Translations under genes and position numbers: made by a program
Source of the DNA: Bilabrum cf. latius
Taxonomy: Eukaryota
NCBI GenBank assembly: GCA_965178125.1
Contig: OZ237737.1
Location: 62,001 to 126,000 of the forward strand
Length of the DNA stretch: 64,000 bases
Direction: 5' to 3'
Notes under the pieces: generated by a model
Told to the model about the DNA's origin: nothing
Databases searched by the model: none
Seen by the model: only the letters and a program-made list of their open reading frames with translations
Shown: one piece after another, positions 31,388 to 64,000 of the stretch
Numbering within the stretch: the first letter of the stretch is position 1
How the letters are laid out: each line of letters starts with the position of its first letter

Positions 31388-31520
31388 TGCGTTATGTTGC
31401 CACATGCTTCCGTTCGATCGTGCCACAGTGCGTGCGCTCCGAGCGGTTCCGGTTAGGGTGAGGGGTAGCCACAGGCGTCAAATTTGCGCCGCAGCTAGTC
31501 GGCGTGCGATCCAGGCTCGC

Positions 31521-33818: not shown

Positions 33819-34007
33819 TGGATAATGCAGCGCGGCAGCTCCCGGTGCATGAACAGATTATTTTGGAGTTGGCGAGCAGAAAGATCGTGCATTGACGTTG
33901 TTGTCATCAGCGAGCCGTCCACGCAACCTCGGACGGCCGGGCTCGTCATCACGACGCCACGCACCACGACAACTAAGAACACTTTGTATTGCTGTTGAGT
34001 GCGAACC

Positions 34008-37000: not shown

Positions 37001-37211
37001 GGCGGGGTCTGCTGTGCTCGGGCAGGTGAGGGTGCTCCTGGGGGCCGTGATGGGCGCTGGCGGGAGCTGTGGCTCGCCACAGATGCAGGTGAACGGCAAG
37101 CAGGCCGACTCTGTGTCTTTCGACGCGCAGCACATGGTGCTGGAGGGCTCTTTGGTGAGCGCAGCGGTGTCGCTGACTGCTTCGGACAGCGTGGTGGAGT
37201 GGTCTTGCTGA
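34008..37211 (+). CDS. GH31 alpha-glucosidase (lysosomal GAA-like) with a signal peptide and two trefoil (P-type) domains
   Basis: MLQQLAVVAALATSSANAA*; trefoils RVDC..LCLAHGCCFD..WCFYP and RLDC..NCEARGCCWE..PYCF; WNDIDYM, WMDMNE, GHWLGDN and FYRNHN. TAGs at 34065, 34197 and 36996; ends TGA. Confidence 0.93.
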
Positions 37212-40700: not shown

Positions 40701-43700
40701 AGCGGTATCTTCAGGCTGCGGCTCACAGTGAGCGATTTTTGCTCCTCCTCGACCAGCGAATTCGCAGTGCTGCTGCGATGCAACGCTCCTCCTCGCGCAG
40801 CCGCAGCCCAGGCAGTGCACTCGATCATGTTCAGCGAGTCCTACCGCTTCGTGGGAGCGGCGCCGGGCACCGAGCCAACAGAGCCGGACAACCGGTTCGC
40901 GCCCGTTGTGCTGGACGGCAGCTACTCGTATGATCCCGACGGCCTGAACGACATCGTGAGCTACGACTGGAAGCTCGTCCAAGAAGAGCAGCCCCAATTG
41001 GGCACATCGGTGACCTACGGGAACGGCCAGCCCGACGCACCGGTGCACATCACGGCCATCGACGGAGCGCCCGGCGCGGTGCTGTTCACGGTGCCCGCGG
41101 CAGAAATCAACGCAGACGGGGACGCATCTCAGGGAAGACCGCTGTCCACTGTGTACACGTACCGGCTCACAGTGAGCGATGGCTGCAGCGCGTCCAGCAC
41201 AGAGGTCGAGGTCGAGGCCCAGTGTCCTACATCTCCTGGCTCCAATGCGAGCATATCGCCCGCACTCGTCACATGGAACGAGCGAGTCGGGTCTCGATTC
41301 TCGACTGCAAGTACAGTGGGCGCTGGCATGGCTGACCCCGACGGCGAGCTCGAGGTGGTGCTGTGTTCCCAGAGCTCGGCGGACAACATCACGAGGGACT
41401 GCGCGCCCCAGTTTAGCCTCAGTGGGGAAGTTCTGTTCCTTAACGACTCGGCTGATTTCGACGCGGAATGGAGATCCACGTCTGCACCGCCAGGATCACC
41501 GATGTCGGCGCTCATAGTGGGCGGGGACAACGACGCTGGGATATACAACTCGTCACTGACTGCCACGTCGCTGGAGGTGCCGATTACTGGCCTAGACTTT
41601 GAGAACCCATTTGATTTCTCCTCGCTGGGCGTGACTTTGCAGGGGCAGTACGAGACTCGGTATCTCGTGTCTACCGGGTGCGTGGCTTCCAGCGATCCGG
41701 CGGTGGCTGTGCTGCAGTGCAACGATCCACCGCTGGCCGACGCAGGCTCCGCCATCACGGTGGAACTAAACGACACTAGCAACCTTCCCCTCGTCACACT
41801 GGATGGCAGTCGGTCACATGCGTCCGCAGATCGGGACGACGGCGAGGCGCAGAGGGACGCGCCGACGTTTCGATTCGAGTGGACCGTCGAGCACACCTCC
41901 CCGGCTGGTGACTCCAGTGCGAACGAGGAGGACGTCATCGGGACGGACGACCCCGTGCAGAACGTCACCGGGCACGAAACGGAGGACGGCATCCACGAGG
42001 CCTTCGTGACTTCCACCAAGTACACGGGTCAGCTGGGAGGCATCCAAGGTGCAGATACCAAGTGCCAAGAGAGGGCACTCGCCGCGCGGCTCCCGTTCCA
42101 CGACGAATTTGTGGCCGTGCTGTGCGATAACGGAGGACACGGGTCCGGCTGGTCCAGAGGTTCTATCACTTCCCGCCCCGTGTACTCAACAGGTCACGTT
42201 CGTGGCGCGTACAGGGTGCAGGCCGCTGTGGGACGGGACCACAAGGTGGCTTGTGGGCGTGAGTGCGCGGCGCGGTGGCAAAGCGAAGAGATGAACGGCG
42301 CTATTACGTACGATGAGTACGGGAGGCTACTGTCCGGGGCCGATCGAGGCACAGTGTTTGGTGGTTGCGACTTGGACGGCTAGGTCCTGGAAGACGTCGG
42401 GGCTGGACAGCTGTGTCTGACGTGGACAAGCGACAGCAGCGATCGCACCACTCGCCTTGGAGACGTGTTGCAGACCGGCGAGCAGCGCTATTCCGCTGGG
42501 ACTGCCAGCTGCGATGAAGAACAGCGTCTCTTGTGCGTGAGGGAGCAGGCACATACGCTCAGTGAACTCGGATACGGAATAGGACCTTTCCAGACGCTCA
42601 CGCCCCAGTTCCAACCGCGCAAGCTCGGCACGTACACGGCAGAGCTGAAGGTGTCTGACGGTTGCCAGCTGTCCACAACCAGCGTGGAGGTCACGGTGAA
42701 ATGCCCGGAGCCTCCACTCGTGTCAGCTGGCGATGACATCATCAGCTACTGGTCACGACCCAACAAGACCCACAGCGGGTTCAGACCTGTGAACTTTTCG
42801 GCCAACATCCCGATGGATGGCATGGGGATCCCTCACGATGCGGAATGGACGCAATCCACAGAGTCTTTCTTCTCACCGCCAAGCACAGATACGGAGTACA
42901 TCTCCGAGTTTGACGTCCCGCAAGCCCTCGTGGACCAGGGCTTTGCGAGCTCAACAACACAGAACATCACCTTTATGTTCGAGCAAGACGTGATCGGCAC
43001 TTCGTAGCCCACCATGCAGAACGAAGCCACTTCAGCTCTACTCGTCACACCAAAGGTGCTCGGAAGCATTGGGTATGCCTACGCCATTTCAGACGGGTGC
43101 AGCATTACTCGGGACCTGGCCGAGGTGCATGCGGAATGCAACACGCCGCCGCTGCTGCGCACAGGCTCGGGCGGGCGGGCCACCGAGAGCGTCTGGAACG
43201 GGACTCACTTCGAGCCCGTGGCAATATCGTCAACGGCTGCAGACGTTGAGGACGACTACCTGACGATCGAGTACACGCTGGGCACCGGCGCTTTCCAGCG
43301 ACCCAGTTCACCGGCCAGCAACATCGAGAGCGATGTGCTGCAGGACGACGACACAGAGCTCGCCTCCCGTGGGAACGGGTCTGCCGTCCTCGCGCCCAAG
43401 AGCGTGGGGTCCTGGAGCTTCAACGTGGGTGCCTCCGATGGATGCACCTCGGTGCTGGCCGACATCCGGATCGACGTGGTATGCTCAGGAACACCTGAAG
43501 CAAGAGCAGCTCAGGACCCCGTGGCTGCACTGGTGCGGGAGCAGGAGCTGGACCTGTCCGATTCGACGGCAATTGTGTCCTCTATCTGGACCGGGTTCAA
43601 CGCAAGTCGAGCCGTCGCAGCCAGTACCGCGGGATAGCTTTTAGTCGGCGGAACCGTGCCAGCGCAGGACTCTAGATTCGCAGATCTCGTCGGCTCACCC

Positions 43701-46700
43701 GGGGTGTACAAAGTGGACCTGGATCCTGGCAATGACCAGGAATTCTCAGCTGGTACCAACACGGCAGGACGCGGCGACTTTTCGTACGCTCTCCTAGAAT
43801 TGAGAAATAGCACGGACCCAGAGAACGAGGCCTTGCAGCTGAAGTGGTCATTGATCGACTATGAGCCGGCACTCGCTGTGGCAGCCATGCGAGGCCCAGG
43901 CTCGACGCCTGGTCGGGCTGATGGGTCCACAATGCCCTCCTTGATTGCATCTTGGTTACAGGACGCGAGTGAAACCGATGCGTACATCTATTCGTTTGCA
44001 AACGGATCCACGGATGGATTCGGAGATGTCATCGCGCGTGGGTTTCACCCGAGCGAGCCCACAGCTGACCCAGCTACTGGCCTGCACCGCAGGGACGACG
44101 GCAGTTTCTTCGTGGCCCAAGTCTTGCCGCCTGCAGTGGCTGCTGCTGCCGGCTTCGACGACCAAGCTCTTCCCGGCTGGGATCCCGAGAACCTCATCCA
44201 CGGTTCCTCTACGGAACCGCTCAGCGGGGACGGATACACGGTGGCCCTCGGCTTCGACGCTCCCAGGGCACTCGTGGCGGGCGCTCGGCTGGGAGCCTGG
44301 CTGTTTGAGGGGAGGGCCAGCGACGGTTGCTCGTTCGACACGGTCTAGGCTGCGGTCATTTCCGCCTGCTCGCAGCCTCCTCTGTCGAGAGCGAGGGTGT
44401 CATGTGCCGTGCTGGCCGATGATGGGAACGTGACGACTAGCTCAGTAGTGGACGCGGTGGAGCTTGCCGGATGGGAGGCCGAGAATGAGGATCAAGCGCT
44501 TCAGCTGCAGTTCCGAGATTCCTGCGGCGGATCAACTCCAGAGAATTCGAACGGAACTTTGCCCGCCTTTGTGTTGAATGGTCTAGAAGGCACCGACGCA
44601 GAGGGTGACGTGCTACGATTCCAATGGGACTTTTTGTCCTTCGCGGCCCCCGACGCTTCCTTCGTACCGACAAGGGCGCTCGGGCTAGACCCCGCGGTGC
44701 TGCCTGACCCGAGCAAGGCAAAGGCGCAGGATAGCGACGTGCTCGACGTGCTAGTCCTGCCTCCCGTGGATCCGCCAATGGGGAACGCGAGCGAGCCGTC
44801 GATAGGTGAGGCTCTCGAGCAGCTGGTTCAGGCTATCCAATTCAAGGATGGCGAAGATGATATCGATGCCGGGCAGGGCCATCCCGTGACTGGGGCTGCT
44901 TCCGAAATCTTGGTCTCCTTTGCTGGTCTGGCGGAGAGAAGTCTGCCCCCGATGGCCGATCCTCGCGCAGGTGGTGACTCCCCGCGGCAGCTGGTGCGCC
45001 CCCAGCACGTTGGCACGTACTTGTTTGGCCTCACCACGGATGACGGGTGCTCGGCCAGCTATGACCGGATTGCAGTGCAGGTGTCTTGCAGCGCACCTCC
45101 AGCGATCAATTTTCTGGGTGCCAATACGGAGACTGGGCACGGGTTTGGCCCACTGGCCCTGCCTGTTCTAGACCTGGTATGGTAGGGGCCCGCGGTGCGA
45201 TTCGGGAGTGGTGCCATCGTTGCAAATGTGACTAGCCGTCGCGCCAACTCCACGGTGCTACGGTGGCGCGCTTCCAACGGGCGTGTGTTTGCAGGAGCCG
45301 GCACTGAGCTCGACGAGGAGAGCGATGGGTCGTTCAGGCAGCCCCTGATTGCCAACGGGGACGTATCAGTTCCATCGTCTTCCGCTGCTAGGCTGCGGAA
45401 AGATGCTAACGGGTCGTATGTGCTGTTGCCCGTACTTGGCAACGTTTCCAGTCTCTAGGGCGGCGTGCCCTCTCGAAGAGGTCACGGTACCGTGGCCGGG
45501 TTCACCCCATTCACGTCTGGCAGTCGGATGGTGGAGCTGACTGCCACCGACGGATGCTCCGTGATTCGTGAGCCAATCGTTGTCAGGAGCACGTGCTTGG
45601 CAAAACCAGTCGTTAGTTTGACTCTGAGAAGTGACGCGACGGGCTAGGCAATCACTGGAGATCCGGTGTCTGTGAGCTGGAATGGGACGGCGTTTGGGCG
45701 TCTGCTTGTCGATGCACGAGTGTCGATCAACGACGGTGGTCTAGGAGTCGCCCCGTACAATGCAACTTCGTTCAAGGGCCGTGGTGAGTTCACCATTGAG
45801 ACAGTTACGGCATCTGGAAGCGGACAAGCGCCATTGAAAGCATCCGTCGGCGAGTTGGTCAGCGAGGATGACACCATCCTGACAGACACCATGAAGGTCA
45901 CGCCGCGGGCCGGTGGGATGTTCCGGGTTGTCTATGTCACCGATGACGGATGCAGGTATGGCAGCGACGATGCGGTGTTCATGGTCACCTGCAACGCCAA
46001 GCCGGAGGCAAGCACGGTGTAGCAAACATACAGCAGCACGTGGGATGGCGATGACTTCCCCTCCGTCCGGCTCAACGCAACGACCAGTTCCGATGCAGAT
46101 CAAGACCATCTGGATCTCACCTGGGAACTCTAGTCCGTGCAGCTGGTGTCAGAGAGTTCCTTTGATCTCTCACCTTTCCCCGCTGCAGGCTCACCGGAAC
46201 TGGAGCTCAACGACTACAGCTATCGATTCGAGGTAATGGGCGACAGCGGCACCACGCTGGCCGAGTCCTCCACCTTTGCGAATGGAGGCACGTCCGGGAT
46301 GGCTTCGCTCACGCCAAAGTATCTCGGGACATGGGAGGCTACCGCAACTGCCAGCGACAGGTGCTCGGACGACTCAACGACCGTGCAGGTGCGGGCCTCG
46401 TGCCCTCGAGCGGCGACTCTGCGTCTCGAGTCGCGAATGCTCTTGTCCCACTGGAACGACTCCTCGCGATCATTTGGTCCCGTTGTGCTGAACGCCACGA
46501 GGACTGCTGGGCTCCTTGGCAATCTGTCTGGTCTATCCCTCGGAATAGAGTATTCGGACTTTGTGGGCCCACTGGAGAGCGCAGCAGTCGCCGCTAACGT
46601 CCGCATGCCGCCAAATCCGCTCCCCGCTGTCGTACCAGAGAATGACCCGGCTGCAATAGACCCAGGGCTAGAGTCCCCATCACAGAACACCTCCAGCGGA

Positions 46701-49700
46701 TTCCTGCTTGAATACGTCCCCACTCTGCTGGGCGAGAGCTACCTGCTGGTGTCGGTGACTGATGGCTGCACCGTCGTCGAAACCAACGTGACAGTCCGCG
46801 CCATGGCAGGCCTCCCACCGGTTCCACGGGCTGCAAACATGTCTGCTTTAGAATCAGAGAACAACGGTCACTAGTATGTTGGGCATGCCCCGAATGCCGA
46901 CGGTCTGGACGATGACGATAACATCGACGTACTAGTTACGCCATGGCGAACCAATGCAGGGGGCAACGGCCTCCCTCTCAGTGGCCAGCACGCTTTTGAA
47001 ACGGTTAAACTCGGTTCGAATAGTCGCGTTGATCCAGACACGTCGTTCGCTGACATTGATCTTCAATGGACCTTCCTGCGGCAGGCAGCAGGGCCGCTGG
47101 CAAGACCTGGAGCTGTCGCATCGGCCCGCTCTCGGGCTGCACTGGATGCTGCCGAGTCGTTGGCAGCAACCGGAGCAGTCACGCAAGCGTCGAGCAGCCA
47201 TGTTTACTCAACCGATGCCGTGCTGCTAGGCGAACTCGGCCACAGACAGGCAGCACTATCCCCTGATTTGCTATCAATGTCAGCTGGTGCTGCCTTTGAC
47301 GACACCCTCGAGGTTGGTGTCCTCTCAGATTCGGGTATACTGTTTCAGTTCGCAGACCACAACGTCCCAGCTGACGATGAAGACGTAGCTAGCAGCACTG
47401 CACTGGCTCCAAAAGCTCCGGCCACGGGAGAAAAGCGACCTATCTTCACCACCGAGCGGCTCGGCATCTCAATGGTTCGGGTGAATGCAACTGACGGCAT
47501 TGGATACGGGTGGGATGCCGCCGCAGTCGCCGCTATGTGCAACGATGCGCCGGTGCTGAACTTCACGAAACTCCTCACTAGCAGCGACCTTGTGTCTGTG
47601 GTGGACACCTCGACATCGATCATTCCACGCCTTAACTTTACGGTGGAAGCTCTTGACTTCGACACGGACTTCCTGAGTCTGCAGTGGACTCGGGCACTCC
47701 ACGAACCCGAGGGCCTCTACAGCGGCCCTGGGGCGGATGACATCACGCAGATCGGAGGGGATGAGCCGGCGACTGCCCTCTAGCTGCTGCCGCTCAGCTC
47801 TGATGCAAGCAGAGGGGAGGTGTAGCTCGTGGCTGCAGGTACCGAGGGCCAGGCTTCAACAATATCATCGTCTGCTGCCGTCGCTCCCACCAAGCTGGGA
47901 AAATGGACTCTGGAGTTTACAGTCTCAGACGGCTGCACGAACGTGTCAGCGAATGTCACTGCTCGCGTGATCTGCCCTGCAGCCAGCAGTCCCCTCCCTC
48001 CCATGCCGGCAAGCCGAGTCTACACCAAGTACGTGGGTGACTTCCTGCGCGGGGGGCGAGGCATCCATCGTGAGGTGGCGCTTGCATTCCCCATCAATGT
48101 GACCTATGACGAGTTCGGTATTCCCAGCGTCTCAGATGTCCCGGCCTTGCTGTCTTGGACCCTCAAGAGCCGGGAGTGCCCCGAGTCGACCGTTGGATTC
48201 GAGAGCAGTCCGGGACCTTCCGATGGTGCCAAGCCGTTTGGCGTTGATCTGACCAGCAGGCACACCACGTCTGGCGGCCAGTGCCTGCTAAACAGACCGT
48301 CTGCGGTTGGTCGCCTGTCCAGTGCGCTCAACTCTACGCTTAAGATGCCTGGAGTTGGTAGGTACACCGTGGTGCAGAGCGCTTGGGACGGATGCAGGGC
48401 TATAGACAGAGAGGTCACGTTTGAGGTGCGATGCAACCCTACCCCCGTTCCTGCGGTCAACGTAGTGCTTTCGGATCAGGATGGATCTCTATAGACACCG
48501 TAGGTGCAGAACGTCCGTAACGCCCAGTCATCCTCTGTGATTGAAATGGTGGACGACGGGTCCGAGGACGGAGTCGCCACCTATAGCATCACTGTGGCTG
48601 CATCGCAACGGGCTGGCGCAGTAATCATGCCGGAGATCACCATCAACGCGTCCATGTCGTTTGATGCCGCTGATCCGAAGAACGAAACGCAGGTGAGCCT
48701 TGGTCTTGACAGCGACGACTACTCGTACATCCAGCCACTGCGCTACATTTGGCAGGTCGTTGAGCACCCTTCGACTGCACGGGGTGGTTCGTTGGCCCTG
48801 CAGCACCCCAACGCCACGACCAATAGCCTGTTTGCGGCGGAGGTTGCATCTGCTGCCGAAACATACGGGGTCGCTGGGGCGGGTGGCGCAGGGGCCGCAC
48901 TTGAGCTGCTCCGCAGGCTGGGAGGCGGGCCAGAGGCACATCGCGCCGCGGGGCGCATCAACCCCGACGCCGTGACGATGTTCCGACCGGATGCGTACGG
49001 CATGTACAAGATCCGTCTGACCGTCCACGACGGCTGCTCCGAGGCCTCTCTAGACGTCGAGGTGGAAGTCAAGTGTCCGCCAGCCCCGACGGTTTCCGTG
49101 CAGGAATCGACCATCACTGTGACCATGGATTAGGCTAGGACGGGCGCACAGGCAGCGAGAGCAGCCCATGCTGCAGCGGAACGGGCAATTGGGCTGGGAC
49201 AGAGCCGGGACACTGCAATTCGGCAAGCCATTGACCAGCTTCGTTCGGCCGTGATGGCCAGCACCGTGTCGCTACGGGCATCCGCCTCGGTCTCAGGATC
49301 CCTCGCTTCGGATGCACTGGCAGGCAGCAGGCTGTTCTACCAGTGGCAGGTGGTCGATGCGCCTATTTTGGCAGCTACATCCGCACACCTTGCTGATATC
49401 GTGCTTGCAGCGGATCCTGACGCCCCGCCGCCCTCTGCGGCTGACGTGGCAGATGTTGCCAGACACGGGGTGGCCGTCGGCAATCGCTCAAGCAGCACGG
49501 CATTCTTTCTGCCCGTTGTTCCTGGTACGTACCGCTTCCGCGTCTTTGCCTCCTCGGCACCGGGCTAGGACCTGTCTATTCCTATCTCACAGCTGGCCCC
49601 TTCCTAGGCCAGCGTCCAGTGTCCTGCAGGGAGCGCCGAAGTGCAGGTGGTTGCGAGCTGTGGACCACCGCCACAGGCCGTTGCCGGGGCGCGACCCATG

Positions 49701-52700
49701 CGAGTATCTGAGTCTGGCCACCCTGCGTCTATGATTGGTGCCCCCTAGGTTGCGCATGGTGACAGCGCCTCGCGCGCAGTGGAGGTCTCGCACGGATCTG
49801 CAGGGTTCGTTTCACGGTGGGGCAAGTACCCTGGCCTGCTGGGATCCACAGACCCAAGCAGGCTGCTCCCGAGCGAGCGGCGGCATGAGCTTGAGGCAGT
49901 CATGACACCTTTTGAGGCGATTGTTTCGCCTGTCGCGTCGAGGTTCGCTCCAGTGGTGCTGACCCCCAATGGCACCATCGACTCAGAGCTTGCAGCGGTG
50001 GGGGCGGGGGCAGCTGGTCTGTACTACCGATGGAGAGTGACCGCCGCCCCGACTGGATCAAGATTGCTTGCTGACCCATCCGCACTCGTTGCTCTTCCTC
50101 TGCACCAGGACACAGCCGCTGGATCGGCGATTGTTCAGCCAGACATGCAAGGTGCCTATGAATTCACGCTGACCGCATCGGACGCACCAGATGCGGCGGA
50201 CGGCAGAGCCAGCTGCGGTGCCTCGACTGCGACCGTCCGCGTGATCGCAACCTGCAATGCGGGGCCGGTCGCTCGCGTTGTGCAGTCTGTTGTGACGGTG
50301 CCAATGTCTGTAGACTCATTGCTGGGCGTGCGTTCGTTCGACGGTGCGGGCGGCGAGGTGTTGAGCGGGGCGGTGGGCGACTCGCCGGATGGCGCTGGCT
50401 TCCAGGGGACAGGCGCGGGGCTTTCGTCTACAGATGTGGCGTCTGGGGGTGGGTCGTCGTCCTCCGGGGCCTCCCTGGGGCAGGCTACGGCAGACGTGGC
50501 GTCCTAGTTTGGTCGACCTGCTGCTGACGGGGCGGCGCTGTCGACCGCCGTGCCCATTAAGGCTTCGAGGGAGCTCAGAGGGGCCGCAGCTCGGCCCGTC
50601 CTGGCTCAAGTGTCTGCCGACACAGACGACCTTGCGTCATCGAAGGGCGGCATTACCGGTCCAGTTGCCATTCTGAATGCCTCTGCCACTCTGGACACGA
50701 GCGCTACACCTTGGGGCAGGGACGCGCTGTCTTTCACGTGGCAGCTGGTCAGCTCGCCTGCAGGCTCGCAGCGGATTTCCATTGGAGACGCATTCAACCC
50801 TGTGGCCGTTTTCATCCCAGATGTCATTGGCACGTACACCTTCCGCGTGACCGTCTCAGATGGGTGCTCCAACTCGTCTGCGACACTGTCGGTGGAGGCT
50901 GTGTGCGCGGAGCTGCCATCCATTGATGCAGGCGACAACCAAGAGATCATGTGGACAACAGCAGACACCGTTGAGTTAGATGGGCCCGATGGTTCGCCTG
51001 GCACCGTATTGATGGAAGGTCTGCTCAGTGATGACGGCGGGCTTCCCCCGGTGGACAGCAGGAGGGACTATGGCGTTGTGGTTGCTCTGCAGGGCAATGC
51101 GACAGCACCTGGGCAGCACCCTTCCACCGATACTGCTCTTGAGAATGTTGCAGTCCGATGGGAATTCATTAGCGTGCCATACACCGAGAACGGAGACGAC
51201 CCGGTCCCTGCAAGCGTTGGAAGCGACACGAACGCAACTGGGGGTACATTCAGTCGGAGCGCAGGCTCCATGGGCGTCCCTGCCATCCACAACGCGACCA
51301 CGCTGGAGCCATGGTTTGTTGCGCGAAGGACAGGGACCTACAGCATCGCCATGATCGCCACGGACGGGTGCTCCACCGCTCGCGATGTGGTGCACGTACA
51401 CGTACTGTGCGCGGCTCCAGCGACCAACCCAGTCTCGGCTAGCGCTGGGTTGCGCTCCCGCATTGCAGCTGCAACGGGACGGACCGCTGGGGCCTCACCG
51501 GCGCCCACTCCGCCAGTTGAGCTCGAGTCAGCGACTGTGCCTGTTGGTGCGTGGGTAGACCTCGCTGGTGCCTTCGACTTTGCCACGTACTTGGGATCCC
51601 AGAGCCAATCCGCTACCCTGCCTGCCCCATACGGCAACGGGCCGTACACCAACGATTCTGCAGCTAGGAGCGCGCCGACACCTCCGAAGCTGCCGCAGCT
51701 TGCGTTCGAGTGGACGATCACGGAGGAGGCCCCCACGCTGGACACTGGAGGGTCGTACCTCGTGCCCATCACCCGGCGCTATGTGCTCAGCCAGGTGCGT
51801 CTAGTCAACGCAGCCGGTGGCACGCTAAGCCCTGAGGCAGAGGAAACCGCCCGGATCGGCAGTCTGCAGTGGACAGTGACCTCTATGCCTGCTGGTGGCT
51901 CCATTCAGATTGAGGACCCAAATGTGCTGCGCCCCGCGGTGACTGCAACGTTTGCCGGCGAGTACGAACTGAAGGTGGAGGCGTTTGTGGGCTGCACTAG
52001 GCGCTCTGGCACGGCTCGACTGATGGTGCAGTGCTCTTCGAAGCCGAGGGCTGACGCGGGCAATGATGTGCGGGTGGTGCTGGGTCAGACCGCCGTTCTC
52101 AACGGAACTGCGTCAACGGATGAGGAGTCTCTCGACGGCCTGCAGTACTCGTGGAGATTGCTCTCAGTCCCTGCTGTGCAGAAACCTGGCGATGGTGCTG
52201 CAGGCCCGGGGGCCGTGTCCAGGGTGGGACACGCCGCCTCTAGTCAGTTGCCTTCCGAGTCGGCCGTGAGCACGAACAGCATTGGCAATCGGGGCACTAG
52301 CACGGCAACTCTGGTCCCAGACGGACTTGGCACATATGAGTTGCAGGTATCAGTCGACGACGGTTGCTCTGTGGATACCGACACGGTGCGGGTCACGGCG
52401 GTTTGCGCCGATGGGCCCGTACTGGAGACGGGTGCGGTGCGGGGCATCCTCACTGAGGCAGTCGAAGAGAGCTTCTAGGAGCTGGAGGAGGGATCGAACC
52501 AGCTGGTGCAGACCCGCGTGCCCAGCGGTCCGCTGCTGCTGGCAGCCGGCGCGAGCACCGGACAGAACGGTGTGGACCCAGAGGACGGGCTGCCTGACCC
52601 GAGCCCTGGTCCATCTGCTGGCACCGTGTCCACTGCAGCTGGCTAGGCGCTAGAAGTCTCGTTTGGCGTCGCAAATGCAGCCGAAGTCAGCAGCCATCCT

Positions 52701-55337
52701 CACGGTTCACCTCGCGTGTGGCGGTGGCGATGGACGCAGGTGCCAGCGAATTCTCGGCTGGTACAGGATGCGGGCGCACCTGGCGTGGACCAGGCCACTC
52801 CTGCAAACAGGCTGGACGGGTCGTTGGCGCCCATGAACGAGCCTGCTCTTGGCTCTGAAACGGCTGCACTGGGCTCAGAGGGAGTGTTCTCCGAGTCCAT
52901 GACTGCCACAGCCGTGCTGGATGTGGCGGGCGTGTACGTGGCAAGGGTGTCTGCGTCCGACGGCTGCTACGTGAGCGAGGCAGACGCAGTGGTGGTGGTA
53001 GGCGCACAGATGCCAATGCTGTTTGCAGGGACAAACTACCATTTCTCGCTCGCGGGAGGGCTCGGTTACATTCTCTGGAAGACCAAGTACCTCGACCTGC
53101 GGGGGCAGATCGTCGGCACACCGGCCCAGGCTAGGAGCCTCGACGACTTCGGGCTGTCAGTGCAGTGGACCGTGGAGTCCCAGCCGGTCGGCATTGAGCC
53201 CGCCCCACTGGCTGAACTGTTCCCGAATGGCGCCGATGTGCTGTCACCGCGGTTCTTCCCGCTCGCAGCAGGCACCTACGTCCTGAAGATCACAACCACC
53301 GAATCGCCGCAGCTCACTGGGGGCTCTGGTTCAGCGCCGCAGGCTGCGGTTCGGTCTGAGACGGTTCGTGTGTTTGTCGCCTGCGGGCAGTCCCCGCAGG
53401 TCGTAATTGCTGCCGATGACGACGACGGGAGGGTGAGTGCTGGGTCCGTGTCTGCTCCACTGACCTCTGGATTTGGCGACGACGATTTCGATGAGGCAGA
53501 GAGGGGCACGGGGCTTACCTCGGGCGTGTGGGCTCTCGGCGGGACCGTGGGTCTGGATGCCGCCTCGGGAACCACGGACCCTGACTCGCCACCAGCCGCG
53601 CTCTCTTACACCTGGCGGCTCGTTGACAACCCAAGCTTGCCGCGCGTGCGGAGGCCTGGCACCGCCGCCATGGGCTTCTCTCGCGCCGCTGTGCTGCAGC
53701 CGGCACAGCCCACGCAATTGGATTCAAGCAGCGCACTGCAGACTGGTCCATCTCGTGGGCTGGCTAACATGGTGCCGGACGGCATTGGCACCTACGAGGC
53801 CAGGGTCACCGTGTCGGACGGCTGCAGTCAGCCGTCCCAGGGCTCCTTCCGAGTCGAGGTTGTGTGTCCCGCGGGACCGTCTGCGGCGGCAACTGCGGTG
53901 GAGCCGATCCTGCTGCAGCCCGGGGCGGACAGCATGCCCGAGTCTGTGACTTTGCAGGGAATCGCGTCTCTCGGAGTGGCTGACGAGTCTGAAGCGCCCT
54001 CGCAGTTCAGGCGCATCTCCTCTGCGTGGTCTGTTGTGAAAGTCCCGCCGGGTGCGCCCACCCCCGCCCCTCTCCCGGGAGCACCGCCGACCATCGCACG
54101 GGGGTCCCAATCGACCGTGTTCTTTGCGCCGGGGTCAAGCGCGGTGTTTTCTCCCGATCGTGTCGGAACGTACGTGTTCCGGTTCCACGTAACCGACGGG
54201 TGTTCAGTGGCGGAAGATGACTTGATCGTGACGATTGCATACACGGATACGTGCAGCAGCAGCGGGAGCGGCAGCGGGGGCGGGAGCGGCAGCGGGGGCG
54301 GCGGCGGCGGTGGTGGCGGTGGGCAATGCCCGCCTCAGGTGGTGGTTGTGCGAGACAGCAGCGTGGCAGTGGTGGAATTTGACACTCTGCTGGAGGGCAT
54401 GGACTCGGCTGCCTTCTCCTCCTCGCAGGCCCTGCAGCTGGCCTTCAGGGAAATCGTCGCATCGATCGCGGGTGAGGGCCTTCCCGAGGGAGAGCGGTCC
54501 TCCATGTCGGCGAGCAACGTTACCATCGACTCGATCGGTCCTGGATCGCAGGCGGGAGGCGGCGCTCGACGCCTGCAGGCAGACTAGGGCACCGCAGTGC
54601 AGTACTCCGTGGCCCTGGAGGGCACTGCTGCGGATTCTGAAGTTACCGAGACGGTGGCTGGCGCCGTGGAGGCCGGCACGGCGTCTGGGAGCCTGGCAGC
54701 GCGGATCAACGCGGATGCTAGCTTCGTGCAGGCGGGCGTGACGACCACTGGTGCGTCGCTGCAGTCGGCGCCCAAGACCGCAGTGGTCCGAAATGTGGTC
54801 ACCACGACTGAGACTAGCCAAGGCGGTGAGAGCGACGGGTGGACCGACGGTGAGTTTTGGGCCGCGGCTTCCATCTGCATCATTTTGGGTTGCGTGCTGG
54901 TCGCAGGAGTGGCGTTTGTCGTGGTCTCGCGTTGCAGGCAAGACGGCACTAAGGAGGGAGCGGGAGAGGGAGCGATGGGGCACGGCCCGGGGTGGGGCGG
55001 GTCAACCGGTGGGCCTGAGCCTCTCCCCATCGCCAGCACCAGTGGCAGGCATGCACGGGGGCAGTAGGGGACAGGTCCTGACAGCGACAGTGACGCGAAG
55101 AGCAGGCTCACCTTCGAGTCTCCCATTGGGGTGGGGGCTCGATTGAGGCAGCTGGGGAGTGGTGCTTCCTCGCCGTCGACGCAGCAGACGGCGACGCAGC
55201 GGCACGCTCAGCTGCAGTCGAGCATGAGAGGTGCCAGCCGGCAACAAGGGGGCCAAAGCGAGCAGCAGCTCAATCCTCTGCAGCGCGCCAGGTCTGGGGC
55301 TGCCACTGGCAGTGGATTCTCTGGCTAGGTTGCGTGA
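37724..55337 (+). CDS. Giant (~5,800 aa) single-pass surface protein: Fn3-associated-like domain, ~28-30 PKD/KIAA0319-like Ig repeats, an endostatin/DUF1554-like domain and a C-terminal TM. Exons 37724-38459 and 38602-55337
   Basis: A 16.7-kb exon holds 26 of the gene's 27 in-frame TAGs and no TAA or TGA until 55335. Recurring W...GxYxxxxxxxDGC...VxVxC..PxA units; TM FWAAASICIILGCVLVAGVAFVVV near 54855-54930. Start uncertain (37724 or 38069). Confidence 0.8.
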
Positions 55338-55814
55338 TGCCGCGGCGCGGAGCCTGTCCTGCGCTAATTGAACATTAAAAACTTGCTACTTGCTGCTACT
55401 TGGACGTGTTTACCATGCCAATCCCTCATGTGTGATTCAAATTACACGCAATGCAGGCTAAGAAGTCTAGAGTCTACTGGTCAGTGGTCACCACAGAGTC
55501 ACCACATCACCAGAATGCCTAGATCTGCTTCAACCGGAAGAATATATCTCACACAGCAAGCAAGCAAGCAAGAAAATCTTGCTTCTCGAGCAATCATTAT
55601 ACTCGGAATGACCCAAACCCTAATACCTCCCTGTCCCACCAGACCTGTGTCCCACGACCTGCTCCGGCGCCGCGCGCCCGAGAGCGGAGCACAGCTGTCG
55701 CGGAACCCCCCACGAAAAGAAGGAGCATGCAGTATCCGCCATACGTCTTTCTAAGTCGCGTAGTAATCCACTGAAAAAATGCCAGTCATCAGTACTAGTC
55801 AAAGGTGTATACAT

Positions 55815-58800
55815 ATGCTTGCAGCAACTCTCGTAAGCACAATTCTGGTTCTGGTGCTCGATACACGCGCCGATGATTGGTGCTCGATGCACTCTATCAA
55901 GATGCAGAAAGGTATAGCCGCCACACCCGGTTAGTATCCAGTATGTGCCATAGATGCAATTACCAGCGAGGCTGTTTGTATGAGACTGGGGCAGAAAGGA
56001 CTAGCCTATGACGTCGCGCTGCCAGATGAGACTGGGTACGTAGCCATCGCCCTCGGATAGCGAACTGATGCTTGTTTAATTCGCGGGGACTCTCTACAGA
56101 TGGAATGCTATGGCACAACTCCGCCCTCTTCTCCATATTATGGATACATGGTGCCTCCGAGCAGCGTGTCTGGTTGGCTCTCGGTTTCGATGGGCAAAGA
56201 CTACTCGTGTGGAATTGCTGCGAGCGATCGATCCATGCACTGCTTCGGTGATGCTGACGACATCGTGCTAGATACAGATGGTACCGTATCAGCGTGGTCG
56301 TCAGTGTCCCAACGCGACGAGAGCTACGTGACCGGCATAGCCGCATCGCCGGCGGGCTCGTTTCATGCCTGGGCTAGCGATACCTTCAAGTTGCAACAGA
56401 TGCAATCCAGCGAGTTCTACAATGCAATGCAAAGAGTTCAGCGGTGGCAAATAGTCGAGTAGGCTACGGGAATCGGGTGCGGCATTGATGCCGCCAACGG
56501 CTCGCTACACTGTTGGGAACCAAACAATCCGGACGCAGGTAGACTGCTCCGCTGGGAGCAACTCCCGACAAATGTCTCCGGCTGGAGAGACCTGTCGGTT
56601 GCAAGCAGCGTGCTGTGTGCGATAAGCGCGGACGATGGTGCGATGTACTGTACAGGGCGGGTTCTCCCAACCATGCAGAGGGGGGAGCCGTTCATGCCTG
56701 GAACATCCTTTGCAGCTGTCACCATATCAATTGGGAGTTCAACAAGTTGGTGCGGCATCGAGGAGTTAACCGAAGTCGTTCGGTGCTATCGCGCTACCTC
56801 TGAGGGCATTGAACAAGAAACGGTCCTTCCGGGTTTCAGAGCCATACCATACCCGGTGCACTGCATGCCGCCAGCGTTCGACCCCAGCAGTGTCAGGGCA
56901 GATAGCAACGCAACGTACCTCAGTCTGGTGAATGCCACCGATCTTGTTCTTTGGGAGAGGCCGAGTGGATCTGTGCTTGAGGGTTGGACCGACCTGCGCC
57001 GAGTGGATCTGCCGAGCTCCTTGCAGTCTCTGTCGAGCGGCGCGTTCATGGGAGCCCCCAAGCTGGGAGCTATCGACCTGTCGAGGTGCTCGCGTTTGCA
57101 CACACTGCCAAGGCATGCGCTCGGCACGACCGCCAACACGCTCAACCTAACGCTCTTGCCCCACGGTCTGTCGACCATAGAGAGCGAGGCATTCCTGTCT
57201 CCCAACGGGTCGGCCAGCACCGACCTTCGTCCATTCGACTTCCCTCCCAACCTGACTACCATCGAGGAAGGGTCTTTCCGCGGGCTGTGGGAGGCTACGG
57301 TTTTCAACCTTTCGCACACCAGGATACAGGTGCTGCCAACTGGGGCATTCGACGGGCTGTCGTCGGTGAAGACCTTGTCCTTGCCGGATTCCGTGCACAC
57401 GATCGAAGCAGGTGCGTTCAGATAGCTGGGGCAGCTCTCTGTCCTGGACCTGTCAAGCACCAGGGTGGCACGACTCGTCTCCGGTGCGCTCGAAGGGCTT
57501 GCTGCACTAACAGCGATAAAGCTGCCAGCCACTTTGGTATCGATTGAGAAGGATGCGTTTGGGTCCATGCCCCTGGTAACTCGACTAGACCTGCGCGAGA
57601 CGCAGGTGTCCGAGCTGCCCACAGGTGCCCTTGCCGGGCTATCTGGGCTGACTGTGATGCACCTGCCGGTAGGCATTCAGCTTATTCGGTCGCGTTCTCT
57701 TCCGCGCGCGCCAAATATTCGCCAACTTAGGCTAAACCAGACACAGTTGCACGAGCTAGAGCCTAACGCGCTCCACGGATTGGACCAGCTTGTCTCCATC
57801 GACCTTCCTGCCAGTCTGACAACCATACACAGAGCGGCATTCAACGGGACACCGGAGCTCGTATCTCTTGACTTATAGCACATCAACATTACTCGCCTTC
57901 GCGCCGGGGCCTTGACTGGCCTGAACAAGCTTGCGACTCTGTTGGTACCACCGGGCCTGTCCACCATCCAGAGAGGCTCGCTACCCGAGGACAACCGAGC
58001 CCTCACTCAGCTCAACCTCAGCATGACACAGGTCGCGGTACTGGAGGAACGCGTCCTTGAGGGCCTCAAGGAGCTCAGCATACTTGACCTGCCCATGGGT
58101 CTACAGGTTTTGGAGCCCCGCGTGTTCCCCGACCATTCGATGATTGCAAGACTGGACCTGACAAGGACCAACGTGGGCGTGCTGCAGACTGATGCGCTGC
58201 GAGGACTGACGCGTTTGGAGCAAATCAAGCTGGCACCACGCCTCAGTCGCATATAGCCACGGGCGTTTCCGAATGCGTCCGGCCTGTCAGCTCTGGATCT
58301 AAGCCAGACCAACCTGTCAGTCCTGCAAGCCAGTGCTCTCCAAGGCCTAGATTCGCTTGCGCAGGTGGACTTGCCTGCCTCGCTAAACACCATCCAAGCC
58401 AACGCATTCCACATGCCGTCCAACTCAATTACTTCGCTGGATCTCTCATCGACCGCTATCACAGAGCTCGGCAGCGGGGCGCTGGACGGGCTGTCAGGCA
58501 TGACGAGCCTGACGATGCCCTCCTCGCTCAGGCACCTGCGACGAGGAGCACTGAGAGGATGCACCGATGGCGGTTTCATTGCTCTGGACTTGTCCGGTAC
58601 CCAGCTGCAGACCCTTGAAGAAGGATCGACGGTCGGGGCGCAGCATTTGGAAACCATTCTGGTGCCACCGTCGCTGCACGAGATCCAAGCAGGTGCGTTG
58701 GCAGGGTCACCGAGTCTGTAGACAATCAGTGGACTCCAGGATTCTGGGCTGGAGGTGCTCGTCACGGATGCACTGGCCGGTCTGCATAGCTTGCAGCAGC

Positions 58801-61800
58801 TGAGCTACCCAGCATCACTACAAACCATCGAAGCAGGCGCCTTCCCGATGCCGTCTGCCTTGGAGACCGTCGATCTGTCCGGCACGAACGTGAGCGTGCT
58901 GCAGACGGACGCTCTCCGTGGCTTGGATGGCCTCACGGGTATGGACGTTCCCCGGGTACTTCAGGAGATCGAGCCACGGGCGTTTCCGAATGCGTCCGGC
59001 CTGTCAGCTCTGGATCTCAGCCAGACCAACCTGTCAGTCCTGCAAGCCAGTGCTCTCCAAGGCCTAGATTCGCTTGCGCAAGTGGACTTGCCTGCCTCGC
59101 TGAACACCATCCAAGCCAACGCATTCCACATGCCGTCCAACTCAATTACTTCGCTAGATCTCTCATCGACCGCTATCACAGAGCTCGGCAGCGGGGCGCT
59201 GGACGGGCTGTCAGGCATGACGAGCCTGACGATGCCCTCCTCGCTCAGGCACCTGCGACGAGGAGCACTGAGAGGATGCACCGATGGCGGTTTCATTGCT
59301 CTGGACTTGTCCGGTACCCAGCTGCAGACCCTTGAAGAAGGATCGACGGTCGGGGCGCAGCATTTGGAAACCATTCTGCTGCCACCGTCGCTGCACGAGA
59401 TCCAAGCAGGTGCGTTGGCAGGGTCACCGAGTCTGTAGACAATCAGTGGACTCCAGGATTCTGGGCTGGAGGTGCTCGTCACGGATGCACTGGCCGGTCT
59501 GCACAACCTGCAACAGCTGAGCTACCCAGCATCACTACAAACCATCGAAGCAGGCGCCTTCCCGATGCCGTCTGCCTTGGAGACCGTCGATCTGTCCGGC
59601 ACGAACGTGAGCGTGCTGCAGACAGACGCTCTCCGTGGCTTGGATGGCCTCACGGACATGGACGTTCCTCGGGTACTTCAGGAGATCGAGCCACGGGCGT
59701 TTCCGAATGCGTCCGGCCTGTCAGCTCTGGATCTCAGCCATACATACATCCGGGATCTCTCAGCAGGCTCGCTGCATGGGCTATCTGGCCTTGGTCTTGG
59801 AGAAGTCATCCCACAGTGCAGTGGATGCCTTAAGCTACCAATGACGCTTGAGCGGATCCATGCCGAGTCATTTCCGAGGCAAGCCACGGGTGTCACGGAG
59901 CTCGACCTGTCCCTTACCAAGGTGACCGAGCTTGTGCAGGGTGCCCTTGACGGGCTCAAGAGCCTTACTGACCTCTCGCTGCCCACCGAGCTATCCCACC
60001 TGCGAGGTGGCGCCCTTCGCGACTGCAGGCGCTTGAATCCCCTCAACTTGTCCCATACGAGGATATAGGAGCTCGAGCCGCGTGCCATGCAGGGGCAGAA
60101 CGTCAAGACGTGCACCTACCCAAAGGGGCTTATTTCCATCGCTCCTGGTGCGTTCATCGGCGCAGTCTCGTAGGATTCCGTGTCTCTTGCATTTACTAGC
60201 TTAAAGCGACTACAGGCAGGCGCGTTTGATGGATTGCGGGGCATCAAGAAGCTGGACCTGCCGGCCAGTCTCAACTCCATAGAGAGGGGCGCCTTCCGCG
60301 GTATGGACCAGCTCTACTCGGAGGAAGCACCAGCAGGAGTAGCGAGATGGTCGCACTTAGGAGTAAAAGCGCTCGTGACGGGGGCACTGGAGGGTCTTGA
60401 TGGGATGCGCACGTTACGGCTGCCGACTGTGCTGGAGACGATTGAGACGAATGCATTCGCGAATGCGACGAGCATTGAGTCCGTGGACCTCGAAAAGACT
60501 CAGATCGAGGTGCTGGCGAAAGGTGCGCTGCGTGGACTGGACTCTGTGTCCTCGATTCAGGTCCCTGACACCCTGCGTGTCATTGATGGGGGCAGTTTGG
60601 AAGGGTTAAGTAAAATTGCAAGCCTCGACATGTCCTCTACGGGCGTTCAAGTGCTAGCTGAGGGAGCGCTTGACGGGCTTGGTGCTCTCGAGACGCTCAC
60701 ATTTCCGATGGGGCTGCGAGAGATCCAGGGCGGGGCATTCCGGCAGGCAAAGAGAGTGCAAACGGTTGACCTCCGAAACACTCGGCTAGAGATTCTCCGA
60801 AGCGGGGCTCTTGACGGGGCGAGCGCCGTGGCCACTTTGAATCTTCCGGGCACGCTGCGAGAGGTGGAGGGCGGCTGCTTCGGGACTGGCCTCGTCTAGA
60901 CGGTAGACTTGCTGGAGACGTAGATATCAACCTTGCCCACGGGGGCATTCGAAGGGGTGCAAGAGCTCACCAGCGTCACGGTTCCGAGGCGTCTAACCTC
61001 TATTGAGCCTGATGCGTTTCGCGGCTGCGAACAGGTCACATAGCTGGACCTTCGCCCGGCCTCTCGGCTGGAATCTCTCGAACCAGGCGCACTGCGCGGA
61101 TTGACCGGTCTGATATCGCTCCAGGTACCACCTTCACTGGCCCACATCCAACCTGGGTCGCTTCCTGCAGCACCCGGCGTGCGATCTATAGACCTACGGG
61201 ACACAAATGTCACGTAGCTTCGGCAAGGTGCTCTGCAGGGCCTGACCGGATTGACCGACAGCGGTCCTGGTGCACCCCCGTCACTGGGCCTCCCGCGTGT
61301 CCTGGCATCATTGGACGCAGGGGCGCTGGGGCACATGCCGAAGCTGGAACTGCTGGATTTGTCGACCACCAGGCTCCAATCGCTTCAAACGGGCGGGCTT
61401 GCAGGTATCCCATCTGTAGCAGAGGTTAGGGTTCCGGATGGGATAAATACAATCGAGGCTGGAGCTTTTGAGGGCTGCGATGGCCTGGAAGACTTGAACC
61501 TGCATTCGACAGCAGTGAGCACTCTGGTTACCGGGGCGTTTGACGGACTGGCAAGCAGTGCTCGGCGAGTGGTGTTGCCGGATGCGCTCGACACAATAGA
61601 GGCAGGCGCATTCAGGCATCTGCATCGGCAGGAGCGCATGGACTTGTCGAGCACGCGTGTGGAGCGTCTGGTCAAAGGTGCCTTGCTTGGGCTGAAGAAC
61701 AGCACCGAGCTCTTGCTTCCTGCTAGTCTTGCGACTATAGAGGCAGGTGCACTCAACGACAGCGGGCGCACAGAGACCCTAGACCTCTCCGAGACTCAGG

Positions 61801-64000
61801 TGACATCGCTGGCACCCGGATCGTTGGGGGGTGCTGTTGTCGGGCTTAACGGCAGAGGTAAACTATTGCTGCCATCTGCTGTGACACGTTTGTAGTCAGG
61901 TGTGTTTGAGACGTTCTAGCCTGACGACTACTTCGAGATTGAAGCCCCCGGTTTGGAGGAGCTCGAGCTTGGCTGCTTTGAAGGAATGGTCACAACTTCC
62001 TCGTTCTCTCTCCGACTGGAAACACCGGTCCTGGGCTCCATCCCTGCCCGTGTCTTTGCCGCTCTGGGCGGCATGCGAGACCTATCGATACGGGCTGCTG
62101 CAGGCGCATCCTTCGGCCGCCTAGACCAGCCGTGCAGCGCGTTTGAAGGACTATCGGGCCTGCGAGAGCTCGGCGTCGATGCACCAGGGGCCGCTAACGT
62201 GTTCGGCGCACAGCAACGCCTGACTGAAGACGGCTTCAAAAGCTGCTCCTTTGGCCCCACGCTACGCCAGCTTGCCTTGAACGGCCTTGATCTTTCCCGA
62301 TCCATCTGGAGCCGCGGGACATTTGCAGCGCTGCCCAGCCTGCACCGCCTGGCCGTGACTGGCTCCTCTGGACAGCGATCCTTCTCCATTGGCGGCGATG
62401 TCCTCACGCCACTTTCACTGCTCGAAGAGCTTGACGTTTCGCGGAGCGGGCTGTAGATGCTGCCGGTACTCACTCGCTCAGCGGGTGGCGTGCTTCGGTC
62501 CATCAACGTGCAGGGCAACCCGCTAGACGTCGTGGTGGACAACCCATTCGCCAACATGTTTCAGCTCATGGACGTGCTCACAGATCCTGGTAAGCAGTGC
62601 AACCAAGGAACTGTTAAGCAGCCAGTGACTGTTCTGAACGGGGACGACCCTGCCATGTGCGTCATGTGTCCGGCAGGCCATTACTGCGCGGATGGCATTG
62701 TCCGCACCGAGTGCCCGCTGGGGAGCTTCAACCCGACTCGCATGGCTCCCAACGCGACTGCATGTCAAGATTGCCCTGTTGGCAGCGTGACTACATTTAC
62801 AGCGGCCGTGTCCAGCGACCAGTGTGTGGCAGTGCCGCTCAGGTGCAACCCGGGCACTGCCGGCCAGGACTGTGAACCATGCGGACCTGGCACGTACTCG
62901 CTAGGAGGAGACATTAAGGAATGCCTGGTGTGCCAAGCAGGGACAGTGTCACAGCGAGAGTACCTGTCGCTCGGATGCGACGAGTGTCCTCAGGGCACGT
63001 ATGGATCCAGGGCGAGGCAAGCTCTGGTCAGCAGCTGCATGCAGTGCGGAGATGGGCTTCGGTCGGACAGCGGGGCCACAGCGTGCTCTGGGTGCCCAGC
63101 GGGACAGCTCCTCGACTCCAGCTCGGGGCAATGTATCTTGCAGGCTGACGAGCCCAGGTGTGGAGCGGATGGCATGGCCTGTCTGCCAGGCGTGCCAGAG
63201 CCGGTCGTGGCCCCAGCCGTCGTGCGCTAGCTCGTAGCGGAGCTGCCGCTGCCCTCGTTCGTGCAGGCGGGGTTCGATTCAAGCAGCTCTAACGCCCTCT
63301 TTGGTGGATTTGAGGAGCCTGTCCCCGCTGACGCAGCGGTGGGCCCGCAGGGCGACGAGTCGCTTGCTCGAATTCTGAGACGCGCATCAGAGCGGATGGA
63401 CTATCAAGACAGCGCAGCAGCTCGAGAGGCTGGCTACGGTACACCAGTAGAGCAACCGAGCCATCCAATGCGCATTGGACGGGACTCTCAGCCGTCAATT
63501 TCCTCTAGTAGGAGGCAGTTGCAGGACAACGGCGAGTCTGGCGGCGATATAGATGCCGGCAAGGACGAGAAGAGCGATACGGCTGCTGCTGAGCAGATAG
63601 CCTGGGTTGTGAGCACTTGTTTCATTGGAGCTCTGGCGCTGATTCTACTGATACCACCTGCCCGTGCCCCGATGCACAGCTTCCTCAAGCTGATCGATTC
63701 GATGTCAATGGACCATTCCCCAGAGCAATTTGCAGCCATGAGGAGAATTAGCACGCCCACGGGTGGGTGGTTTACTGTGGCTGCCATCCTTGTGGCCTTG
63801 GCTTCGTCGGCTAACCTGGTTCTGTAGTATGCGTACAGCAACAGTATCAGCAACGCGGGACTGCAAGTTGCTGCCACCGGTGTAGAGGGAGCCGACAGGG
63901 CGGCAGCAGCACGCTCCAGCATGGTGCTGGACCTGGTGCTGCAGCCGGCATCGTTCGTGAGGTGTGATGATAGCGTTTCGCTGCAAGTGTCTTCTGGGAG
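55815..64000 (+). CDS. Large membrane protein with signal peptide, RCC1/BLIP-like repeats, a long BspA-type LRR array, Cys-rich (GCC2/TNFR-like) repeats and TM segments; 3' partial
   Basis: MLAATLVSTILVLVLDTRA; CGI...HCFG repeats; LPxSLxTIExGAF and LDLSxTxxxxL units; CPAGHYC, CPLGSFN and CPQGTYG; TMs near 63600 and 63770. Nineteen in-frame TAGs; open at the window end. Confidence 0.82.
58257..59739 (+). repeat. Near-identical 717-bp (239-codon) tandem duplication within the LRR gene: two full copies and the start of a third
   Basis: ccacgggcgtttccgaatgcg recurs at 58257, 58974 and 59691, and the copies differ by only scattered substitutions. Confidence 0.93.

Follow-up and report, generated by a model that had tools for sequence, protein, structure and literature searches.

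To our knowledge, nuclear genetic codes in which UAG alone has been reassigned to glutamine are rare and have previously been found in just a few unrelated protists. Gut phages, crAss-like ones among them, have reportedly given the same codon the same new meaning ('genetic code 15'), with suppressor tRNAs that are said to appear late in infection. Here we analyze a 64,000-nucleotide stretch of DNA (the window; GenBank assembly GCA_965178125.1 of Bilabrum cf. latius, contig OZ237737.1, positions 62,001 to 126,000 of the forward strand) and, within it, the in-frame TAG codons of a giant surface-protein gene made of leucine-rich repeats (LRR gene; 55779..63998, + strand) and of its neighbors. Unlike the phage genomes, the window is a eukaryotic nuclear locus with spliceosomal introns. 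We are confident that in this nuclear DNA, which comes from a gene-dense, GC-rich eukaryote, TAG encodes glutamine and TAA and TGA act as stops (NCBI table 15 type).

Passages of PMC11687900 concerned with such codes name the fornicate Iotanema spirale and the ciliates Protocruzia tuzeti, Hartmannula sinica and Trochilia petrani as organisms in which only UAG has become a glutamine codon. The window resembles the table 15-type codes as these passages describe them: UAG is glutamine, UAA is a stop, UAG occurs in most genes, and the likely route is a tRNA with anticodon CUA that does not read UAA (PMC11687900), a route that the window would share. For phyllopharyngeans, the same passages give UAA as the main stop, UGA as the rarest one and a GC content of 27-54% (PMC11687900), whereas the window has about 62% GC and UGA is its main stop (8 of 9 gene ends, and 3 of 3 in the syntenic contig L001 introduced below). 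The code that reads both UAR codons as glutamine (table 6) is listed there for many ciliates, ulvophycean green algae, Hexamita, Streblomastix and Amoeboaphelidium (PMC11687900). The common point is a stop of the UAR pair reassigned to glutamine; unlike in those codes, TAA never stands in frame in the window. According to these passages, it is rare for UAG and UAA to have different meanings, and codes of this kind bear on the co-evolution of release factors and suppressor tRNAs (PMC11687900).

Decoding of TAG in the window and in a syntenic relative

Ten open reading frames (ORFs) read with TAG as a sense codon, comprising 16,712 codons, contain 82 in-frame TAGs against no TAA and no TGA, a count that is partly circular because the ORFs are bounded by TAA and TGA. 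The gene ends are TGA in eight cases and TAA in one, that of the ABC1/ADCK-type kinase gene (31278..33818, + strand; three in-frame TAGs); these nine ends, together with three in L001, are a small sample of stop usage. Under the standard code the ORFs are fragmented (longest 1,097 aa), and reading through TAG yields ORFs of 5,759 and 2,887 aa. Reading through TAA as well changes almost nothing and joins no further domain-bearing ORFs; reading through TGA gives a total of 51,830 aa (ORFs of at least 300 aa), yet the longest product has just 1,506 aa, and we take this gain to be noise, TGA being the stop triplet that is most frequent in GC-rich DNA. Pfam domains are spread along the TAG-read ORFs, which are clearly eukaryotic genes. 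UAG is a sense codon here; UGA (mainly) and UAA still terminate. The UAR-to-glutamine code of table 6 does not describe the window, because no TAA stands in frame against 82 TAGs and the ABC1 gene ends in TAA. GC content lies between 58% and 74% in 2-kb windows, and TAG accounts for approximately 11-12% of the glutamine codons. If in-frame TAA followed the CAA:CAG ratio of the ten ORFs (120:510), about 19 would be expected against the zero observed. The frequency of TAG is that of a minor glutamine codon, used in nearly every gene of the window and 19 times in the LRR gene.

The relative, L001, is a 7.7-kb metagenome contig found by scanning metagenomes with the ABC1 kinase. It is syntenic with the window over the 3' end of an ABCB half-transporter gene (28190..31387, + strand; five in-frame TAGs, ending in TGA), the ABC1 gene and a GH31 alpha-glucosidase gene with two trefoil domains (33999..37211, + strand; three in-frame TAGs, ending in TGA), at a nucleotide identity of 70-82% (blastn blocks) and a protein identity of 62-70%. 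Its ORFs contain 21 TAGs in frame, and all three end in TGA; the CAG at 31115 in the ABCB gene of the window, for instance, corresponds to a TAG in L001. Orthologous sites were kept if at least 8 of 20 flanking residues were identical, and the likelihoods use the substitution table of the same alignments. Opposite the 19 TAGs retained stand nine glutamines, four glutamates, two alanines and one residue each of aspartate, lysine, arginine and serine, and the resulting log-likelihood is -34.3 for glutamine, -50.5 for glutamate, -53.5 for lysine, -60.0 for serine and -72.5 for arginine. At the strictest cut-off (13 sites) the values are -23.3 for glutamine and -32.3 for glutamate; overall, glutamine is 9-17 log-likelihood units (nats) ahead of glutamate. 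Counted from the residues of the window, TAG occurs in L001 at 7 of 85 glutamines, 3 of 101 glutamates and 1 of 48 lysines, at less than 1% of the arginine, aspartate, serine and alanine sites, and at none of 1,011 sites across the 13 other residue types.

Conserved columns of more distant homologues lead in the same direction. A TAG of L001 in the ABC motif SALD...E..V[x]..L faces glutamine in both halves of ABCB1; the column holds glutamine in 239 of 243 instances from 120 homologues and glutamate in none, and the codon of the window is CAG. The most informative gene of the window for decoding is a GH30-like glycosidase gene (4816..7044, - strand) with six in-frame TAGs, one of them in the context NEFEY*PG (asterisks denote the TAG-encoded position). 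Four of its TAG sites were scored, two being skipped for occupancy (7 and 58 of 120 rows); the log-odds summed over the four columns are +5.66 for glutamine, -0.48 for aspartate, -1.05 for glutamate, -1.54 for arginine and -7.47 for leucine, and glutamine stands at the TAG position of NEFEY*PG in nine of the 12 closest homologues. The orthologue, ABC-motif and GH30 comparisons strongly favor glutamine as the predicted residue.

Contigs of four sequencing runs were placed on positions 1-20000 of the window. Those of runs X5 and X6, which come from two studies, skip seven introns of 98-323 nt, four of them GT..AG on the + strand and three CT..AC on the - strand. Five of the seven start with GTGAG, as do the other two after cut offsets of +1 and +2, and six end in CAG or GCAG after cut offsets. 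The junctions in X5 and X6 join the exons of an arylsulfatase-B-like gene (1786..3943, + strand) into a single ORF of 559 aa that encodes a signal peptide and includes a TAG in frame. Because the introns are spliced out and these exons join into a single ORF, and in view of the uneven depth, we infer that the X5 and X6 contigs are RNA-derived, although neither run is recorded as RNA, nor is any other run that contains the stretch. Run X1 shows flat depth, contigs of up to 212 kb and retained introns. The X5 and X6 contigs cover at least ten TAGs without any mismatch (one in a WD40 gene, six in X5 and three in X6 in the GH30 gene, and three in a Cys-rich gene), and the only base difference listed in 20 kb is at position 11785. 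Spliced transcripts and conserved domains alike contain TAG in frame, its positions behave like those of glutamine in orthologues and homologues, and the trait is shared by a related organism.

In mechanistic terms, a glutamine tRNA whose anticodon, CUA, differs by a single change from that of tRNA-Gln(CUG) would decode UAG but not UAA, and an altered eRF1 would no longer recognize UAG while still recognizing UAA and UGA. This model of a tRNA that reads UAG only and of a modified release factor is drawn from what the relevant passages of PMC11687900 present as established for such codes. A scan of the window against Rfam gave no match, and the 64 kb contain no eRF1 gene.

TAG columns and tandem duplication in the LRR gene

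The LRR gene is open at the 3' end of the window; its 2740 codons include 19 TAGs, no TAA and no TGA. The product has a signal peptide, approximately 34 BspA-type LRR super-units of 48 residues each, an ephrin-receptor-like Cys-rich region and a transmembrane segment (domain matches: LRR_8 1e-138, LRR_5 7e-123, Ephrin_rec_like 1.5e-07). An earlier, sequence-only reading of the window had proposed from paralogous repeat positions between 57310 and 61220 that TAG encodes glutamine. All eleven codons quoted for this proposal, together with their peptide contexts, are exact and in the frame of ORF 55779-63998. This applies to LSHTRIQVL with CAG at 57327 set against LSHTRI*EL with TAG at 60066, to LRETQVSELPTGA with CAG at 57603 against LLET*ISTLPTGA with TAG at 60921, to RVQTVDL with CAA at 60759 against LV*TVDL with TAG at 60897, and to VT*LDL with TAG at 61041, which had been compared with LTQLNL. 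The two counter-examples given for glutamate, I*PRAF (58254) and VT*LRQGAL (61215), are equally real and lie in glutamate-rich columns. A further comparison, SLQTIE with SL*TIS at 58719 and 59436, has correct codons, but pairs distant paralogues (a B unit with the start of an A unit of the 48-residue super-repeat); moreover, both positions are indeed TAG, yet they represent one event, being copies within a tandem duplication. The pairs had been hand-picked and used eight of the 11 in-frame TAGs of the region, leaving out 57423, 57876 and 60171. With glutamine at 4.2% of the LRR residues and approximately 25 units per column, we estimate that most columns contain a glutamine-bearing paralogue by chance; among the ten TAG columns that were scored, nine contain glutamine and seven glutamate.

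The columns in which these TAGs fall differ widely in composition (all on the + strand). The TAG at 57423..57425 (residue 549, GAFR*LGQL) lies in a column with seven glycines, four aspartates, three asparagines, two glutamines and two histidines, and that at 57876..57878 (residue 700, LDL*HINIT) in one with 15 serines and four arginines. At 58254..58256 (residue 826, SRI*PRAF) the column has 13 glutamates, five glutamines and three arginines; this TAG is located exactly at the 5' edge of the tandem duplication, and the other copy has GAG. The duplicated TAG occurs at 58719..58721 (residue 981, SPSL*TISG; copy 1) and at 59436..59438 (residue 1220; copy 2), the latter being a non-independent site. 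Further downstream follow 60066..60068 (residue 1430, LSHTRI*EL; five serines, five threonines, five glutamates, four glutamines), 60171..60173 (residue 1465, GAVS*DSVSL; a hydrophobic column of ten leucines, six valines and five isoleucines), 60897..60899 (residue 1707, GLV*TVDL; six glutamates, five threonines, three serines), 60921..60923 (residue 1715, LLET*ISTL; eight arginines, six glutamines, five asparagines), 61041..61043 (residue 1755, EQVT*LDL; six serines, four alanines, four threonines, three arginines, two glutamines) and 61215..61217 (residue 1813, TNVT*LRQGAL; eight valines, five glutamates, four threonines, four arginines and no glutamine).

The tandem duplication spans 58255..59740 (+ strand): positions 58255-59023 correspond to 58972-59740 at an offset of 717 nt, over approximately 769 nt with 13 mismatches, a pattern suggesting that unequal crossing-over or gene conversion has recently taken place among LRR units. 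It was found by other means than TRF, which reported no tandem array, the period being above the limit of that program. A comparison of the N-terminus of the LRR protein with viral contigs revealed no relative.

For a systematic tally, 36 super-units of 48 residues were aligned by an iterated hidden Markov model; after the second copy of the duplication and units shorter than 31 residues had been dropped, 28 units remained and ten TAG columns were scored (the anchored columns do not include the TAGs at residues 981/1220, 2047 and 2226, which have no score). This tally, which the earlier reading had suggested as a check, does place glutamine first, with log-odds of 4.67 compared to 3.09 for arginine and 1.64 for glutamate, although its lead of 1.6 nats over arginine and 3.0 over glutamate is weak. 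The method was calibrated by masking ten real residues of known type, with 500 trials per type. Masked true glutamines were called glutamine in 198 of 500 trials and arginine in 183, whereas glutamine was called for true glutamate in 38, for true arginine in 26 and for true lysine in 66 of 500. Because the masking calls compare as 198 of 500 to 38 of 500, a win of glutamine in these columns would be only about five times likelier under glutamine than under glutamate, and the paralogue argument alone is weak. The direction of the earlier proposal is right, and glutamine is the best-supported residue, mainly from evidence outside the LRR repeats; naming glutamate as the runner-up was a fair caution, since glutamate also comes second in the orthologue test with L001.

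Alternative meanings of TAG

Several observations weigh against glutamine. Four of 19 orthologous partners are glutamate, which exceeds the approximately 6% rate of glutamine-to-glutamate exchange in the same alignments, and the TAG at 34197 of the window faces GAA in L001 within a well-conserved trefoil context. At NEFEY*PG, the wider GH30 family has 60 leucines compared to 45 glutamines. The sulfatase TAG faces serine, leucine or methionine in solved homologues, and the ABC1 TAG columns are variable among 148 distant homologues, with no residue favored. Within the LRR gene, the TAGs at 58254 and 61893 share the column with 13 glutamates compared to five glutamines, that of 61215 lacks glutamine, and that of 60171 is hydrophobic. 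Finally, tRNA scans of the window and of six related loci (among L001-L009) returned no tRNA gene. The circular element in the counts of TAA and TGA and the archive records of runs X5 and X6, both mentioned above, belong on the same side of the balance.

One reading of these exceptions is that TAG is ambiguous, i.e. that it is mostly glutamine but is also read as other residues by near-cognate tRNAs, or that it terminates translation in certain contexts. The somewhat over-represented non-glutamine partners, above all glutamate, would fit this idea, as would the position of the window TAGs mostly outside the cores of conserved domains and the missing suppressor tRNA in the loci scanned. Yet TAG ends none of the nine window genes and none of the three L001 genes, full-length protein from genes with 19-31 TAGs would demand near-complete read-through, and L001 has TAGs freely inside the cores of catalytic domains. 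We consider ambiguous decoding improbable.

It is very improbable, too, that TAG encodes glutamate. Such codes exist: UAG is glutamate in the ciliate PL0344, and UAR is glutamate in peritrichs and Blastocrithidia. In the present data, glutamate is second best in the orthologue test, predominates in the column of 58254 and 61893, is present five times opposite 61215, where glutamine is absent, and is the orthologous residue of the TAG at 34197. However, true glutamate sites are conserved at 72-75% between the window and L001, so that approximately 14 of the 19 partners would be expected to be glutamate instead of the four observed. The likelihoods given above, the ABC-motif column without a single glutamate, the negative GH30 score and the rarity with which masked true glutamates of the LRR units were called glutamine are likewise at odds with this reading.

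Other residues (lysine, arginine, serine, leucine, tyrosine or tryptophan) are still harder to reconcile with the data, and we regard them as highly improbable. Known codes in which UAG has yet another meaning include leucine in the rhizarian exLh and in phyllopharyngean metagenome-assembled genomes, and serine in Scotinosphaera. Arginine is second in the LRR columns, leucine is the commonest residue at GH30 position X549, one LRR TAG is located in the column of leucine, valine and isoleucine, and ARSB has serine at the sulfatase site. Against this, lysine, serine and arginine all score below glutamine in the orthologue test; leucine, tyrosine and tryptophan face none of the 19 TAGs and serine faces one; L001 has no TAG at the sites of the 13 other residue types; and leucine and arginine are disfavored in the GH30 columns. 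The four TAGs of the Cwc15 splicing factor gene (7044..8108, - strand) fall in its charged, poorly aligned middle region, where S. pombe has glutamate and arginine, and human arginine and glutamate.

Pseudogenes, errors of assembly or U-to-C editing (which would restore CAG by a single transition), under any of which the TAGs would not be translated as such, have a negligible probability, even with no run recorded as RNA, because the spliced contigs of two studies carry the TAGs unchanged; furthermore, the frames are open across thousands of codons with domains throughout, and the separate relative L001 has its own TAGs elsewhere. RNA editing of the TAGs is unlikely, although contigs lose rare variants, so that low-level editing is possible.

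Lineage and gene content

A code with TAG as glutamine is in itself nothing new, being of the table 15 type. Ciliates or an anaerobic fornicate are a poor match for a locus with introns of 98-323 nt, with giant genes on long contigs, and with genes for a mitochondrial carrier and an ADCK kinase. GC content, intron sizes, UGA-dominated gene ends and genes of an aerobic mitochondrion, taken together and in part against what is generally known of these organisms, do not fit Iotanema, Protocruzia, Hartmannula or Trochilia. Among named organisms, GH30 is matched best, at 41-46% identity, by acanthoecid choanoflagellates and a picozoan, and the best ABC1 matches are spread among choanoflagellates, green and red algae, Rhodelphis, a frog and a record labeled 'Symbiodinium sp. 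KB8'. A quick single-gene tree of ABC1 places the window and L001 within a clade of environmental sequences (SH-aLRT 98); it is based on 57 rows from P0243-P0299 of 150 matches, with P0247 and one match above 1,000 aa left out. Homologue searches with GH31 and ABCB returned mostly two-domain vertebrate and plant proteins and no taxonomic signal (the ABCB set was kept for the count in the glutamine motif), and an atlas search with the ABC1 domain found generic ABC1 clusters only.

We tentatively suggest, on a balance that tips slightly the other way, that the window and L001 belong to a so far unrecognized, deep-branching lineage of marine eukaryotes that are rich in GC and comprise two or more species, in which UAG was independently reassigned to glutamine and UGA is the main stop. 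If the lineage is separate, it would be a further independent member of the table 15 type, unusual in GC content and stop usage. Its code would also be the first of this kind from a GC-rich genome outside the ciliates, and the loss of TAG under AT pressure ('codon capture') would offer no explanation; a genome of 62% GC that ends its genes in UGA and reads UAG as glutamine would provide a test of codon-capture versus ambiguous-intermediate models. A literature search, whose coverage is incomplete in that subscription journals are mostly outside it, found no report of a GC-rich non-ciliate eukaryote with UAG as glutamine and none of a code change in choanoflagellates. The sequencing runs of the organism are from 2025, and an account of its code may already exist elsewhere.

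The region 31278-37211 is represented by 0.66-1.00 of its sampled words in runs of four differently labeled organisms from four studies, and by smaller shares in protist, algal and marine metagenomes. The source organism may be an associate or a contaminant of several cultures. Two public protein fragments, P0242 and P0247, are 100% identical to the ABC1 kinase of L001 (L001 1772-3787); one stops just before a TAG and the other begins approximately 14 residues past a TAG, and the L001 kinase has evidently been cut at its TAGs by standard-code gene calling. Because standard-code gene callers cut such genes at each TAG, as in these kinase fragments, the proteome of the organism and its phylogenomic placement would be wrong unless table 15 is used.

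An ORF at 38157..55337 (+ strand) encodes a giant protein with PKD repeats and contains 31 TAGs. Its first 127 codons (38157-38540) include five TAGs (3.9%, compared to approximately 0.5% elsewhere) and are probably untranslated region or intron, with the real start further downstream. The PKD repeats are irregular, with DGC motifs spaced by 115-610 residues, and could not be aligned, so their 31 TAGs were left unscored. A voltage-gated channel gene is also among the ten TAG-read ORFs, the others being those of the GH30-like, Cwc15, mitochondrial-carrier, PI3/PI4-kinase-like, ABCB, ABC1, GH31, PKD and LRR proteins. The arylsulfatase-B-like gene has five exons, separated by GT..AG introns at 2056-2198, approximately 2341-2466, 3032-3132 and 3163-3297, and its TAG is at 2991 (FIL*SDNGG); a 30-nt micro-exon (3133-3162) is backed by spliced contigs of both runs. 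The mitochondrial-carrier ORF (8301-9527) has 408 codons and no TAG; a 323-nt intron at 9413-9735 near the 5' end indicates that the ORF listed is only a part of the gene.

A giant ORF at 17647-25743 comprises 2,698 codons at 72-74% GC, with low-complexity runs of alanine, glycine and acidic residues; its only domain match, to PI3/PI4-kinase close to the C-terminus, is weak (E 0.0031) and below the Pfam cut-off, and its acidic repeats at 18.2-18.6 and 19.5 kb attract many contig pieces that belong elsewhere. The strand switches at 25743-25812: all recognized genes between 4.8 and 25.7 kb run on the - strand and all between 25.8 and 64 kb on the + strand, and the sulfatase gene, to the left of 4.8 kb and of the minus-strand run, is an exception on the + strand. 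These same-strand gene runs are long, and the spacers within them are very short, as between 55337 and 55779.

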